NCBI GenBank assembly: GCA_964510585.1
Contig: CAZECW010000058.1
Span: 11,038 to 43,037 of the forward strand
Length of the DNA stretch: 32,000 nt
Source of the DNA: an uncultured archaeon
GTDB taxonomy: Archaea > Asgardarchaeota > Jordiarchaeia > Jordiarchaeales > Jordiarchaeaceae
Direction: 5' to 3'
The stretch's first letter is position 1; the number at the start of each line of letters is the position of its first letter. Under the pieces are notes generated by a model that saw only the letters and a program-made list of their open reading frames with translations, was not told where the DNA came from and did not search any database. A program made the position numbers and the translations under genes. Positions 630 through 31,451 of the stretch are shown here, piece after piece.

Positions 630-1103
630 GTGGTTTATGAGGAGAAGCTTATTCAAAAAGTACTAGTGGCAATCGACGGTTCCATATACAGTGACAAAGT
701 GGCAAGATACGGAGAGGAAATAGCAAAACACCACAATGCGGAAATCACACTAATACACGTAGTTGAGCCGCCAAAAATCATACTGCCCATGAGCGGAATG
801 GAAACCACCCTACCCATGGCCGAAATAGAACTCACAGAAAAGTTAGCCACAGAAATGGAGAAAAAAGCCAAAAAGCTACTCAACCAATACAAAAAAGAAA
901 TGGAAAACAAAGGTATTAACGCTAAAATATTGATAGAAAGAGGAAACGTTTCCGAAACAATATTGACAATCGCCGAAGAAGAAAGTTATGACTTAATCAT
1001 AGTAGGTTGCCGAGGACTGGGAAACATTAAGCGTTTCATACTCGGAAGCGTCTCGGACAAAATAAGCAAACATGCAAACTGCTCAGTATTAATAGTACGC
1101 TAG
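630..1103 (+). CDS. Universal stress protein (UspA family)
   Basis: N-terminal VLVAIDGS; ATP-binding signature G-x2-G-x9-GS (GCRGLGNIKRFILGS); C-terminal ANCSVLIVR. Confidence 0.92.
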   Translation: MVYEEKLIQKVLVAIDGSIYSDKVARYGEEIAKHHNAEITLIHVVEPPKIILPMSGMETTLPMAEIELTEKLATEMEKKAKKLLNQYKKEMENKGINAKILIERGNVSETILTIAEEESYDLIIVGCRGLGNIKRFILGSVSDKISKHANCSVLIVR

Positions 1104-1250
1104 AACAGCACCGTCTAAAGTTCAAATCTACACCCCCTTAACAAAAAACACAATACGTACATAATCAACGTGACAAAAGAACGTTACAAATACCGTGAAT
1201 ATTCCATAATTTTTAGCACAGATCCCTTTAAGGAGTATTATTTTATTTTG

Positions 1251-1321
1251 ATGATGAATGTTTTCACCCGGAGCTGAAGCTAGCAGCCCCACTCCTGTGT
1301 ACATGAATGTTAACAGGGTGA
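1251..1321 (+). ncRNA. Candidate small structured RNA (box C/D-like or three-way junction)
   Basis: ATGATGA (box C) at 1251-1257, CTGA at 1274-1277; TCACCC 1264-1269 pairs with GGGTGA 1316-1321 and encloses two small hairpins; lies in a gene-free gap between convergent genes. No canonical terminal CTGA. Confidence 0.25.
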
Positions 1322-1595
1322 CAGACCACTAACCCTTTACTACAAAGGTTTACCAAAACTAAGTGTTATTTAAAAGTAGGGATGGATTTACTTTTGCCAC
1401 TATTAAGATATAGATAGCAGGCATTTTTGGTGGAAGAAAAATTTTGCAGTTTACCAGCTTTACCAGTGTAACCAAAAGGGTAAGAAAAGTGCTATAAGTA
1501 GCCGCTTTGTTGGGTAAAAGAGGTAGTAGAATCTGGCACCATTTTATGATGCTAGAAATGGATTGTAAAAAGTAGGAAAATAAAAAAGACGGGAA

Positions 1596-3365
1596 TTATT
1601 TCTTTACGACGTCCGGAATCTTTTCTGGAGGTAAGACTTTAACCTTCCATTTAGTGGCGCTCTCAATGCTAGTCTTCAGAGACTCAGCAGCCGGCGGAAT
1701 GATGAGTTCCTTCTTAGTTATTTGCTCGTCAGCGCCGCCCTCTTGCATAACCTTTTTTATAGCTTCAGCATCAAGCTTCTTCTCTTTGACAGCAGTTTCA
1801 AAGTCTAAGCCCTCAGTGTCCACGACAAGTAGCCAAGCTGAAACGTTTGCGTCAAGTAGTGGCCTCTTGATTTCATAGAATGACTTGATGTTGTTCGTGG
1901 CGAGAAACACTGGACTTTCCTTACCGGGGTCGCCTACATATTTAAGACCCGTAGGCGCTCTATACTTGTCCCTCAGGAAGTCGGCAATGGCACCAGAGTC
2001 TTTGGGACCAACATACACGTCCCAACCGCTTAAATCTTCAATTTCGCCTTTGAATCTTGCAGCCATCCCGGGTATAATTAAAGCCCTGTGATTAACCTTT
2101 TCGGCGACCTTGAACTCAGTTAGAGCATCAGAAATACTGTTGGCATTAAGCTGACCACCGGCAGCGGAAGACTCAACGCCTATTCCGCCCGTATCCATAA
2201 TTATTAGCCAGGCATTTATTTTAGCTTGTTCTAAGTCGGATTTTACAGTGTATGCTGTTAGGGCAAAGTTTGTAGTTATCATCACTGGACTGTTTCGGTC
2301 CGGTGCACCTATGGGCATTAGCTCCGGTGTTACCGCAGGGTGTACCCTGGGATCTTCGTAAAGGTTACTCACTAATACCACTAGTGGTAAGAATGTCCAG
2401 AGTTCTGATGAGTGTATGATGAGTAGGTCGGCATATCTGGCGACTAGTATTGCGGATAGGACTGTTTCTTTGAAGGCGGTTTCTAGTCTTTCTCCCTCGG
2501 AAACTCCTTCTTTGCCTATCCAGATTGTGGCGGGGACTCCTATGAGTGGCCAGCCCACATCTTTATCGTCCATCTCTATTGCAGCCCTTCGGAGCATAGT
2601 GAAGTTGTTTATGGTATCTGAGAGTAGTCCTTCTCCCCAGAAAGTTCCGGGGTCTAGAGCCAGTTCTTGAACTCCTGCTTGGTAGAGTGATTTTGCCAAG
2701 CTTTTTAGGAGGTCTAGGTCTCCGGGTGCAGCTACCACTAATGGTAGTTTTTCGCTTCTCGCGATTTCTCCCACTTCTTTCCAGTTGTCCTTGGTGGCTG
2801 CGTAAAGTAACGGCTTCTTCCCCGCCGCGGCTTTTATTCCAGCCTTTAAGCATTCGGGTTTTAGTGAGCATAATATTATGGGCCAGTCTGTATTTTTCAC
2901 GACTGTGGATACGGCTTTAGCGAATTTGTTGGGATCGCCGGACACACATTTTATAGCTATAGCGTCCAGCATGAGTGTTTTTCCAATGTAGAAGGTTCCC
3001 CAGTGTGTTATGAGGTCTACCCTTTTTACTAGTTCACTTTCGTCCATCTCGTCGTGGACATCTATGGCTAATACTGTGGGGTTGTACCAAGTGAGCTCGT
3101 GGCGACGCATAACTTCTTTTCCGCCAATGGTTTTGACGTGTTCACCTTCACCGAATTTTATAGCTCTTACTGGTGGTGTTAATATTTCTTTGAGTTTATC
3201 GTAGTTTTTCTTGTTTTTAGGGTCTAGTATTGGTTTGCAGACTTCTAATTCTACTTCATGGTTGATGAGCTTGTAGGCGAATGCCATACACGTGTCGTCA
3301 CCGCACTCCTTGCAGTTGGTTTTGGGTAGTAGATTATATATGTCTAAAGGTTTCAGCCTTGACAT
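1596..3365 (-). CDS. cdhE: Acetyl-CoA decarbonylase/synthase gamma subunit (corrinoid Fe-S protein large subunit) with an extra C-terminal domain
   Basis: N-terminal LPKTNCKECGDDTC [4Fe-4S] motif, barrel region, corrinoid domain (TTNFALT, DTGGIGVE, LIIPGMAA, VGPKDS); last gene of the cdh operon. Confidence 0.95.
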   Translation of the reverse strand: MSRLKPLDIYNLLPKTNCKECGDDTCMAFAYKLINHEVELEVCKPILDPKNKKNYDKLKEILTPPVRAIKFGEGEHVKTIGGKEVMRRHELTWYNPTVLAIDVHDEMDESELVKRVDLITHWGTFYIGKTLMLDAIAIKCVSGDPNKFAKAVSTVVKNTDWPIILCSLKPECLKAGIKAAAGKKPLLYAATKDNWKEVGEIARSEKLPLVVAAPGDLDLLKSLAKSLYQAGVQELALDPGTFWGEGLLSDTINNFTMLRRAAIEMDDKDVGWPLIGVPATIWIGKEGVSEGERLETAFKETVLSAILVARYADLLIIHSSELWTFLPLVVLVSNLYEDPRVHPAVTPELMPIGAPDRNSPVMITTNFALTAYTVKSDLEQAKINAWLIIMDTGGIGVESSAAGGQLNANSISDALTEFKVAEKVNHRALIIPGMAARFKGEIEDLSGWDVYVGPKDSGAIADFLRDKYRAPTGLKYVGDPGKESPVFLATNNIKSFYEIKRPLLDANVSAWLLVVDTEGLDFETAVKEKKLDAEAIKKVMQEGGADEQITKKELIIPPAAESLKTSIESATKWKVKVLPPEKIPDVVKK

Positions 3366-21610: not shown

Positions 21611-22087
21611 TTATTCTCTTCTGCTACGCATCCTAGCAAAAAGATCCTTTAATTCGCCTTGTAGTTGCATTCTGGCGCTCATGGGGCCTCCGCCTGCTGG
21701 ACCTTGGCTTGGCCCTAAGCTGGGACCCGGGCTTGGACTGCGAGCTGTAGCCATTCCCCCTGCCCCTCCGTATGATGGAGCTGGTGTTGGGCGTGGGTAG
21801 GGTGATGGCTCTCTTCCGGTGGTTTTGTACTCATAGTCCTCTTCTTGTTCGTAGCCTGCAGGGGCTTTTCTTCTTGTGTCTATGTTCAAAGAGGGGCCTC
21901 CGGAACGCTGGATATCGTTAATTTTGTTTTCTAAACTGTTTAGTCTATTCTCTATTCCGTTCATTCTTCCTTCGAGCATATCTACTGCGTTTAATATTAT
22001 TTTTACTACTCCCGATATGATTTCTGCTAATTCTTTTACCTTTTTATCGTTGGCAAACTCGAGAATCTCGCTAAAATCATCAGACAT
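21611..22087 (-). CDS. Hypothetical protein: coiled coil, Pro/Gly/Ser-rich disordered linker, C-terminal amphipathic helix
   Basis: Heptads LEGRMNG-IENRLNS-LENKIND; PSPYPRPTPAP and PSPGPSLGPSQGP linker; terminal ARMQLQGELKDLFARM. Confidence 0.75.
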   Translation of the reverse strand: MSDDFSEILEFANDKKVKELAEIISGVVKIILNAVDMLEGRMNGIENRLNSLENKINDIQRSGGPSLNIDTRRKAPAGYEQEEDYEYKTTGREPSPYPRPTPAPSYGGAGGMATARSPSPGPSLGPSQGPAGGGPMSARMQLQGELKDLFARMRSRRE

Positions 22088-28717: not shown

Positions 28718-29719
28718 GTGTCTAAATTGACAAAGAGAAGTAAAGTTTGTCCAAGGTGCCAAGCCAAATATCCTCTAACTGATTTTGAATTTTGTAGGTA
28801 TTGCGGAGCCAAACTTGAAGATATAGCCGACTCAGGCAATTTCTTGGGTAGAGGTGAATTTGGTAAAGTAAAGCATAGGACGCTTGCCTCGTGGGGCTGG
28901 ATTCCAGCGGTATTAGGATACGCAGCTTCGTTTATTTTGCTTTTTCTTTTTCAAAACATCCTGTCCATTATAGGAGCATTCTTGGGCCTCCCCTTTATGT
29001 TTGTACCGCTTTTTGATTCATGGGTTGCAACACTGACTCCAGAGTTTCTTGTTTTCATCACTTTGGGCCAGCTCGGCCTAGTAGTAATTCCTCTTTTATA
29101 TCTAAAGATAAGAAATTTACCTCTGAAAGAATTGGGATTTGACTTTGAGAATAAAAAGGAGGTTCAAAATGACATTATGATAGGTACTCTGGGCGGGGGG
29201 ATGATGATGGGAATCTCTTTATTTGTGTCGTGGGCATCAACCCTCACAATTGGGGCACTGTACTCCCCCTTAGACATTTACATGTCAGAAATATTTTCAA
29301 ACATCAATAATGCATCTTTTATGGCAATCCACTTTTATCAATACGTACTGCTGGTTATAAGCATGTTTCTTTTAGTCGCCCCCAGCGAAGAAATATCAAC
29401 TCGAGCATTCCTACAACAAGGACTGGAAAACAGTTTTGGAAGATGGATTGGTCTCATCATCACTGCAATAATCTTTTCAGCCCTGCACATATTGCTCTAC
29501 CCTCAAACTGCAACTGCGATAGGATTCCCAAGCTATATCGGCTCTATATCAGCCATAATAGCCATACCTTCTTATCTCGCCCTCTCCTTAACACTCGGCT
29601 TCCTACTCCAGATAAGAAAATATAGAATAATCACTACAATAACAGCCCACGCAGTCTACATGATAATACTAGTATCAATATACTATTTCCAAAACTACTG
29701 GATTTACCTTTACATATAA
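28718..29719 (+). CDS. CPBP (Abi/Rce1-like) intramembrane metalloprotease with N-terminal Zn ribbon
   Basis: EExxxR (EEISTR), FxxxH (FSALH) and a final His motif (HAVYM); N-terminal CPRC...FCRYCG. Confidence 0.85.
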   Translation: MSKLTKRSKVCPRCQAKYPLTDFEFCRYCGAKLEDIADSGNFLGRGEFGKVKHRTLASWGWIPAVLGYAASFILLFLFQNILSIIGAFLGLPFMFVPLFDSWVATLTPEFLVFITLGQLGLVVIPLLYLKIRNLPLKELGFDFENKKEVQNDIMIGTLGGGMMMGISLFVSWASTLTIGALYSPLDIYMSEIFSNINNASFMAIHFYQYVLLVISMFLLVAPSEEISTRAFLQQGLENSFGRWIGLIITAIIFSALHILLYPQTATAIGFPSYIGSISAIIAIPSYLALSLTLGFLLQIRKYRIITTITAHAVYMIILVSIYYFQNYWIYLYI

Positions 29720-29939: not shown

Positions 29940-30644
29940 TTGGGCAAGAAAGAAGAGAAACTATTACGATTCGTCTCAAAAGTATGCTCCTCCCTAATCA
30001 GCACCTCCAACAAGTACATCGAATCACTCAAAAAAGCACAAGAAGCCTACACCAAACAGATAGAAAAACTCCAAAAAGAACTCGAAAAAGCCGCAAAAGG
30101 AATGGAAATCGAACTCACAGCAGTAGACTTATCCATACCTACCGCCACAGCAGAAGCTGCGGAGGAACCAATAATAACCACAACAACTACACTGGAAACA
30201 TTCGCCAGCAAAACCGCACCAGACGACGTATTTGACATGTTCTCAAAGTCTGGACCCCCAGCCGCAACAGTTACCAGCGCTCCACCAAGTGCCGGTATCC
30301 CACCAAGAGCCGGCGCCCCACCAAGTGCCGGTATCCCACCAAGAGCCGGCGCTCCACCAAGTGCCGGTATCCCACCAAGAGCCGGCGCCCCACCAAGTGC
30401 TGGCGCCCCACCAAGTGCCGGTATCCCACCAAGAGCCGGCGCTCCACCAAGTGCTGGCGCTCCACCAAGTGCCGGTATCCCACCAAGAGCCGGCGCTCCA
30501 CCAAGTGCTGGTGTGCCGAGTGTTTCTGTTCCTCCTCCTGTAGGGGCCGCCACAGTTCAGGATGCTGCCTCTATTACGGATCTTAGGAATGCTATGATGG
30601 CTGAGCTTAGTAGACTGAAGAAGTTGTTTGCTGCAGAGGAATAA
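29940..30644 (+). CDS. Hypothetical protein: coiled coil, 13x PPxAG repeats, C-terminal helix (WH2-like)
   Basis: N-terminal coiled coil YIESLKKAQEAYTKQIEKLQKELEK; Pro-rich repeat block; terminal LRNAMMAELSRLKKLFAAEE; TTG start after GAAGGGT. Confidence 0.78.
   Translation: MGKKEEKLLRFVSKVCSSLISTSNKYIESLKKAQEAYTKQIEKLQKELEKAAKGMEIELTAVDLSIPTATAEAAEEPIITTTTTLETFASKTAPDDVFDMFSKSGPPAATVTSAPPSAGIPPRAGAPPSAGIPPRAGAPPSAGIPPRAGAPPSAGAPPSAGIPPRAGAPPSAGAPPSAGIPPRAGAPPSAGVPSVSVPPPVGAATVQDAASITDLRNAMMAELSRLKKLFAAEE
30282..30515 (+). repeat. In-frame 18-bp tandem repeat, 13 units
   Basis: Units begin CCACCAAG and encode PPSAGI (A), PPRAGA (B), PPSAGA (C), PPSAGV (D) in the order ABABABCABCABD. Confidence 0.95.
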
Positions 30645-31196: not shown

Positions 31197-31451
31197 TTAT
31201 TTGTATTTTAACTCGTATAATTCGCTGCTGTTTGGTATATAGAAGGAATCGTTGAAAAAGATTACAGGTTTTCGGAATAGAACTGCTAGTTTCAAAAATG
31301 GCGATATTTGTTCGTCTCCCTTAAATACAATTTTTGCAGAGATAGCTCCACCTTCCTTAAAATCTGCGGGAACTATTATTGGTACACGCTCTTCCTTTGC
31401 TTTGATTTTTACTTTTTCCGCGAATACTTTTTTCTCGTCCTCTTTAGGCAT
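31197..31451 (-). CDS. Small hypothetical protein
   Basis: 84-aa ATG ORF with GGAGG 8 nt upstream; protein-like composition. Confidence 0.6.
   Translation of the reverse strand: MPKEDEKKVFAEKVKIKAKEERVPIIVPADFKEGGAISAKIVFKGDEQISPFLKLAVLFRKPVIFFNDSFYIPNSSELYELKYK

Follow-up and report, generated by a model that had tools for sequence, protein, structure and literature searches.

The gene at 29940-30644 and its features

The window (the whole stretch of 32,000 nucleotides that was analysed, from an uncultured Asgard archaeon) carries on its plus strand a gene whose product, hereafter P0001, consists of a long helix, a proline-rich repeat and a short terminal helix. The gene, its parts and a conserved neighbour are arranged as follows.

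29940-30644, plus strand: whole gene of P0001, 234 amino acids, TTG start, a soluble family member of the Jordarchaeaceae type
29946-30095, plus strand: long N-terminal helix (residues 3-52), probable coiled coil or head, from AlphaFold2
30222-30248, plus strand: short acidic and aromatic helix DDVFDMFSK (residues 95-103), from alignment and AlphaFold2
30277-30508, plus strand: 13 hexapeptide repeats (A/I)PP(S/R)AG, a disordered proline-rich arm, from Tandem Repeats Finder and AlphaFold2
30558-30638, plus strand: portable C-terminal module (residues 207-233) with a helix at residues 212-232, from alignments, AlphaFold2 and profile comparison
31197-31451, minus strand: conserved neighbour gene of 84 amino acids, helix plus beta-alpha-beta-beta-beta, from a structural model and locus comparison

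As judged by its full-length orthologues, which a genome search found in seven Asgard families (f1, f2, f3, f9, f12, f20 and f23), the ORF 29940-30644 is a real gene, and the closest public protein carries the name Candidatus Jordarchaeaceae. The start codon of P0001 can be fixed, because in the alignment its orthologues begin with M-[GPS]-KKEEK at aligned TTG, GTG or ATG codons. Start codons are mostly non-ATG across the family (position 29940 of the window and loci L005-L023), with TTG in two families and GTG in another, and an ATG start is found in only some of the orthologues. At the other end of the gene, the terminal 19 codons occupy 30585-30641 and the stop codon 30642-30644, in agreement with the initial annotation of this DNA. 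The ORFs at 30047-30553 (minus strand) and 30232-30543 (plus strand) were considered as genes and rejected as by-products of the repeat, the counterparts of both having in-frame stops in relatives. Upstream, the gene at 28718-29719 (plus strand) encodes a membrane protein with a zinc ribbon and an Rce1-like CAAX protease, and its synteny with the family gene is confined to the two closest families.

AlphaFold2, run on an alignment of 18 sequences (P0001 and 17 orthologues of the soluble form, all full length), predicts helices at residues 3-52 (pLDDT about 90), 95-103 (about 58) and 212-232 (about 84). P0001 is predicted to be disordered outside these three helices, and the pTM is 0.24. The three-part architecture proposed in the initial annotation, with an N-terminal helix or coiled coil, a proline-rich repeat and a C-terminal helix, is confirmed by the ORF, the repeat finder and AlphaFold2; its count of 13 PPxAG repeats also stands, as Tandem Repeats Finder reports an 18-bp unit repeated 12.9 times, that is 13 hexapeptides. 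When P0001 was searched in Pfam, in the PDB with a sequence profile and in the protein atlas, coiled-coil noise or nothing was returned.

Head and proline-rich arm

The N-terminal helix is peculiar to the soluble form and is conserved in all seven families that have it. A Pfam search of this region gave weak noise of the coiled-coil type and nothing more. The short second helix is recognisable in the family alignment, where relatives have STLFSLL, EDLWSxL or DSLFDFL at the position of DVFDMF.

The repeat units of P0001 are APPSAG or IPPRAG, each with two consecutive prolines only. The copy number differs inside the genus, giving proteins of 189-241 amino acids, and the proline-rich middle shows no sequence conservation: other lineages have APPAAPP, GPPRAPP, PPTGPPT or GGGPPGG, and in one relative the linker is acidic and contains few prolines. 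Because its sequence is unconserved between lineages and its repeat number varies within a genus, we read the arm as a flexible spacer; by its sequence, the PPxAG tract looks like such a spacer, and not like a defined profilin ligand. The proposal that this tract recruits profilin does not agree with a sequence that is unconserved, offers only PP dipeptides and is substituted in relatives by other proline-rich or acidic linkers. Furthermore, the VASP peptides used as profilin ligands by others are polyproline runs, which the units of P0001 do not resemble, and polyproline binding was not seen for the published Loki and Odin profilins (PMC8410842). A P-S-A-P late-domain motif in the arm was also considered and set aside; on a rough estimate it is expected by chance in a sequence rich in S, A and P, and P0001 has PSAG.

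A portable C-terminal helix

In the alignment, no other element of the P0001 family is as strongly conserved as the terminal helix. It is an amphipathic helix of about 21 residues, in a shared module of about 27, with L215, M219, E222 and K227 invariant and L223, R225 and L226 nearly so. Its hydrophobic stripe (I212, L215, M219, L223, L226 and F230), flanked by the conserved E222, R225 and K227, has a 3-4-4-3-4 spacing, which is that of a straight and not of a supercoiled stripe.

When the soluble and transmembrane sets are compared profile to profile, only the C-terminal 27 residues align (probability 99.4%, E 3e-21). In families without the soluble form, only the last third of the profile is matched, at the end of ORFs of 270-570 amino acids that consist of one or about ten N-terminal transmembrane segments, a coiled coil, a proline-rich arm and the tail. 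A profile of the tail (32 columns) matches 172 of 201 Asgard genomes, and 80 of the 86 high-quality ones, usually with one copy per genome. The genome that contains the window has a single copy, with an E value of 2e-13 in the genome search and of 1e-12 in a local hmmsearch, the next best match having an E value of 8.

Among 1.84 billion representative proteins, 92 clusters carry the tail, almost always at the extreme C-terminus; the exceptions comprise an arrangement of three tandem copies at an N-terminus and the GTPase, Cys-rich-domain and TIR forms described below. Ten of these clusters were scanned with Pfam and the remainder sorted by length and transmembrane content. The tail is found behind soluble, single-pass and multi-pass membrane heads, on Ras/Roc-type GTPases and in tandem copies of 2-3, and by the same scan and sorting no cluster has a gelsolin fused to it. 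The GTPases bear one or two copies, one pair of which flanks a PPPPP run. Tail copies also precede a Zn-ribbon-like, Cys-rich domain without Pfam match, and one form precedes a TIR domain. All the named members retrieved are called 'hypothetical protein' and come from Loki-, Odin- or Hodarchaeota MAGs, and a literature search for a family with this head, proline arm and tail found no description. With its match to the tail profile, its N-terminal helix of the soluble form and its adjacent 84-amino-acid gene, P0001 is, by sequence comparison, a member of an undescribed Asgard family defined by a head, a proline-rich arm and an almost invariant end helix.

Two other matches were rejected in the course of these searches. 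A CdvA-like coiled-coil match occurred in one of 11 transmembrane relatives, below cut-off (E 5.8e-4), and was not reproduced in the others. An OAR-motif match in 5 of 22 tails is taken as a chance likeness of S-I-A-x-L-R.

Neighbouring genes

The 84-amino-acid gene lies at most 2 kb from the family gene in 11 of 16 loci, representing five families, and the two genes are convergent, divergent or in tandem. Of the 201 Asgard genomes, 75 contain the 84-amino-acid gene (f1, f2, f3, f9, f12, f20, f23 and one genus of f7), sometimes in 2-4 copies per genome. Its range matches that of the soluble form, not that of the tail, and its product is a probable partner of the soluble head. The model of the protein is confident (pLDDT 87.7). 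Its fold found no convincing match in Pfam, the PDB (Foldseek), the AFDB clusters (uncharacterised entries only) or the atlas, nor in a VIA wide search, where the best Z was 4.3.

In one Asgard family, f9 (loci L027-L030), the family gene, a PIG-L-like deacetylase gene and an actin paralogue follow each other in that order on one strand, the last two abutting. This order holds in the five f9 genomes examined, each of which encodes three or four members of the actin family. With 44% identity to the main actin, the paralogue is divergent, and its score of 290 bits compares with 443 for the main actin. No actin gene is found beside the family gene in the window or in 11 other loci of nine families (f1, f2, f3, f12, f20 and several families with the transmembrane form). 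As the adjacency is seen in only one Asgard family, it counts as one evolutionary event. The transmembrane forms recurrently adjoin a gene like rpiA, for ribose-5-phosphate isomerase A (L037, L040, L041, L044, L045, L049 and L050), in six Asgard families, which argues for orthology and old synteny.

A second Asgard-wide family is represented in the window at 21611-22087 (minus strand). Built on the same plan as the P0001 family, its members begin with a coiled coil, continue with a linker rich in Pro and Gly and end in a conserved helix, R-x-x-L-x-x-E-L-K-x-L-F, which 38 of 61 relatives possess. In three genomes, which belong to two other families (f3 and f15), a distance of 6-7 kb separates the gene of this family from Vps4.

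Host actin toolkit and phyletic pattern

The assembly (3.78 Mb, 96% complete) encodes an actin scoring 456 bits against Pfam Actin, a two-domain gelsolin, a 304-amino-acid gelsolin-X protein and, on contig C98, a profilin 80% identical to the Pfam-positive profilin of a closed genome of the same genus. Since actin, profilin and gelsolins are all found, the precondition on which the initial annotation made its proposal depend, an Asgard host with an actin toolkit, holds.

Two further proteins of this genome were noted. The gelsolin-X protein (contig C65:22659-24880; L168, ORF 922-1833, minus strand) joins a gelsolin domain to a further domain through a Pro/Glu-rich linker. Its end helix, S-S-I-x-x-L-x-x-x-M-x-x-x-L-x-x-L-x-x-x-F, is in hydrophobic register with the tail and lacks the conserved charges, and the tail HMM gives no significant match to it. 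A second MIT protein of 286 amino acids (contig C150; L054, 1417-2274, plus strand), which the other genomes of the genus encode as well, has its MIT domain fused to a domain resembling the HKD domain of the phospholipase-D/nuclease type.

In the profile search of the 201 Asgard genomes, the tail is not found in f17 (0/5), f19 (0/7), f6, f8, f11 and f22. Gelsolin is not found in f19 (0/7), f6, f22 and f3, and is found in only one of five genomes of f17 and one of four of f15. At the family level, the table of tail against gelsolin (19 and 2 in the first row, 2 and 4 in the second) gives a Fisher p of 0.011, a value overstated by kinship because related families are not independent. Vps4-MIT is present in the tail-less f19 (7/7), f6, f8 and f22, and is not found in f17 and f11. 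The tail therefore tracks the actin-regulator set somewhat better than ESCRT, with exceptions both ways: f3 has the tail without detectable gelsolin, and f8 and f11 have gelsolin without the tail. Actins are most divergent in the lineages that lack the tail (363-398 bits versus about 440-456), and the phyletic pattern is confounded in that these lineages may simply be fast-evolving.

A proposed tether ending in a docking helix

The anatomy of the family, its conservation, the portability of its tail and its genomic associations are observed; from them, we infer docking by the tail, a role for the neighbour protein and any link to actin. The explanation that we favour, and hold to be somewhat probable, is that the product of 29940-30644 is a flexible tether, composed of a head, a disordered proline arm and a terminal docking helix. 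The head, which is here the long N-terminal helix, would probably oligomerise and/or bind the adjacent 84-amino-acid protein; in most other Asgard lineages, it is made of one or about ten transmembrane segments and a coiled coil. The arm would serve as a disordered spacer, rich in proline and varying in length and sequence, and is here built of 13 hexapeptide repeats. The tail would bind a conserved partner in the cytosol and keep it close to the head, and so close to a membrane or a complex. A tether of comparable layout exists in bacteria, where ZipA attaches a filament to the membrane and ends in a globular FtsZ-binding domain. The transmembrane relatives of P0001 share with ZipA an N-terminal anchor, a long P-rich linker and a cytoplasmic terminal binding element; unlike ZipA, the P0001 family ends in a short helix, and the two are not known to be homologous.

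The identity of the partner is a more tentative matter. The actin system, through the filament or the monomer groove, is the leading candidate, with a probability that we place clearly below an even chance. The actin adjacency in f9, the tracking of gelsolin and the precedent of arcadin-2 lean towards it. In Pyrobaculum, arcadin-2 uses its C-terminal helix to occupy the hydrophobic groove of crenactin (PDB 5LY3; PMC5173319). Like the tail, this is a conserved C-terminal helix of an archaeal protein, and the arcadin-2 gene lies beside an actin gene, as the family gene does in f9. This helix is the only actin-binding element of arcadin-2, its binding relies on a tryptophan (PMC5173319), no sequence relation to P0001 is shown, and neither this window nor most lineages have an actin gene close to the family gene. 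Several observations count against the lean towards actin: the sequence likeness of the tail to WH2 and to the FAB and GAB of VASP is at or near chance; adjacency to an actin gene is confined to f9; the recurrent neighbour in most lineages is rpiA and not a cytoskeletal gene; and f3, f8 and f11 depart from the match between tail and gelsolin.

A more specific version of the tether, which is possible but doubtful, would make the family a coupler between Asgard membranes and Lokiactin, i.e., a membrane-anchored or oligomeric tether whose end helix binds filaments or the monomer groove. The proline arm would then give reach and, in some lineages, feed in profilin-actin, and the protein would be a functional analogue, conceivably a forerunner, of the Ena/VASP and WASP-family design. 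Ena/VASP proteins consist of EVH1, a proline-rich region and EVH2, the latter with GAB, FAB and a tetramerising coiled coil (PMC10340426), and P0001 has comparable ingredients in its probably oligomerising helix, its proline-rich arm and its basic amphipathic helix. Aligned without gaps to the FAB of human VASP (residues 259-278; PMC10340426), the tail has 6 identities in 16 positions. The order of the ingredients is permuted in P0001, however, which has no EVH1 domain in a Pfam scan and no long polyproline runs. Peptides were also scored, without gaps, on a position matrix made from the tail alignment, and each was compared with 5000 shuffles of itself. The VASP FAB scores -0.5, with 32% of its shuffles as good, and 59% of the shuffles of the VASP GAB score as well as the GAB itself; the FAB likeness is thus no better than that of shuffles.

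Alternative readings of the tail

The likenesses of the tail to WH2, to FAB and to MIM1 are, in these sequence comparisons, at or near chance, and we regard them as resemblances, not relations. ESCRT-III subunits carry a MIM1 motif by which they bind the MIT domain of Vps4 (PMC7240154). The tail could be a MIM1-like helix with the MIT domain of either Vps4 or the second MIT protein as its docking site, in which case the family would be an ESCRT adaptor. Both the tail and MIM1 are leucine-rich helices at the extreme C-terminus, and M219-x-x-E222-L223-x-x-L226-K227 repeats the h-x-x-[ED]-[LI]-x-x-L-K of the host's own two ESCRT-III C-termini and of their Asgard orthologues, with the same h-x-x-x-h-x-x-L-K spacing. 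A Pfam MIT match, at least a weak one, exists in every tail-bearing genome checked (three above cut-off, G018 only below), and the closed genome of the same genus has an ESCRT-III gene about 10 kb from the family gene. In the MIM1 consensus, (D/E)xxLxxRLxxL(K/R), the hydrophobic spacing and the K fit the tail, but the position of the arginine is occupied by the invariant glutamate, and P0001 has no Snf7 domain in a Pfam scan. Profile-profile comparison by hhalign with 18 Asgard ESCRT-III C-termini reaches a non-significant 38.5% probability over 11 columns, and the host's own ESCRT-III ends score on the tail matrix no better than shuffles (55-79% of them as good). Furthermore, the phyletic pattern of the tail does not follow Vps4, as four families have Vps4-MIT without the tail, and there is no ESCRT gene among the conserved neighbours. 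We therefore consider an ESCRT adaptor to be unlikely.

Self-association of the tail also fits its sequence. The tail would then be a short helix of the leucine-zipper type whose pairing, either with another tail or with a different helix such as that of the 21611-22087 family, clusters or cross-links tethers. We keep this reading, at a low probability, because the tail fits heptads, its hydrophobic residues falling on a/d positions with one polar 'a' position, and because the PDB sequence that its profile matches best is the zipper segment at the C-terminus of GCN4 (E 0.7). The GCN4 peptide also scores above all of its 5000 shuffles, although it was chosen post hoc, and the 21611-22087 family has R, h, E-L, L and h in register with the tail. 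On the other side, three heptads make a marginal zipper, the stripe is straight, and the invariant charges of the tail and its occurrence once per genome fit a specific hetero-partner. The C-terminal helix of the 21611-22087 family, for its part, is not recognised by the tail HMM, and 10% of its shuffles score as well as it does on the tail matrix.

The initial annotation had seen in the tail a WH2-like element, and a fuller version of this reading would combine a G-actin-binding WH2 tail with a PPxAG tract recruiting profilin-actin, in an archaeal assembly factor of the WASP/WIP type. The host does have actin, profilin and gelsolin. As in WASP, WAVE and WIP, a proline-rich tract precedes a short basic amphipathic helix with L-K-K, and the hydrophobic triad can be aligned. 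The WH2 string of WIP, as given in the initial annotation, scores 5.0 on the tail matrix, better than 97.8% of its shuffles (2.2% as good), with the helix half only aligning; and the short-linker tandem copies of the tail, together with those flanking PPPPP on a GTPase, recall tandem WH2 arrays. The WH2 HMM (PF02205) finds no match at E<=10, however, in the whole protein, in its residues 190-234 or in the tails of 22 relatives. WH2 domains are formed by a helix followed by an extended LKK[TV], with five or more residues between the hydrophobic triad and LKK. For the tail, the prediction is instead an uninterrupted helix of 21 residues that includes LKK; throughout the family alignments, the Gly/Pro breaker before LKK is absent and the gap between triad and LKK is two residues, a spacing three residues shorter, and the fourth position is L/I/F/Y, not V/T. 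P0001 also has neither C nor A regions. Neither the layout of a helix followed by LKK nor WH2 membership is supported by these comparisons, and we do not regard the tail as a WH2 domain. An assembly factor of the WASP/WIP type, which would also have to accommodate the unconserved repeat with its PP dipeptides and the published Loki and Odin profilins, is very unlikely. WH2-like motifs published for Asgard archaea lie inside gelsolins (PMC9433394).

Finally, the tail could bind membranes, in the manner of the targeting helices at the C-termini of MinD and FtsA. It is indeed an amphipathic C-terminal helix behind a flexible linker, but most family members are already anchored by transmembrane segments and the tail has an invariant glutamate, further acidic residues and an acidic end, which makes this reading highly improbable.

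Significance

Asgard archaea are described as having no known filament polymerases or membrane linkers of the kind of formins and Ena/VASP, and a co-immunoprecipitation with Lokiactin brought down profilin, gelsolins and the ARF GTPase UYP48373.1 (PMC13716822); in that work and the related literature, the published Asgard actin regulators are profilins and gelsolins. The family to which the proposed tether belongs is a nearly universal, mostly single-copy Asgard protein, membrane-anchored in most lineages, that projects an invariant, predicted docking helix on a long arm. If the tail does bind actin, the family would offer a concrete handle on the connection between actin and membranes in the closest archaeal relatives of eukaryotes. 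If its partner is a different one, the tail would still define a conserved hub interaction of Asgard cell biology.
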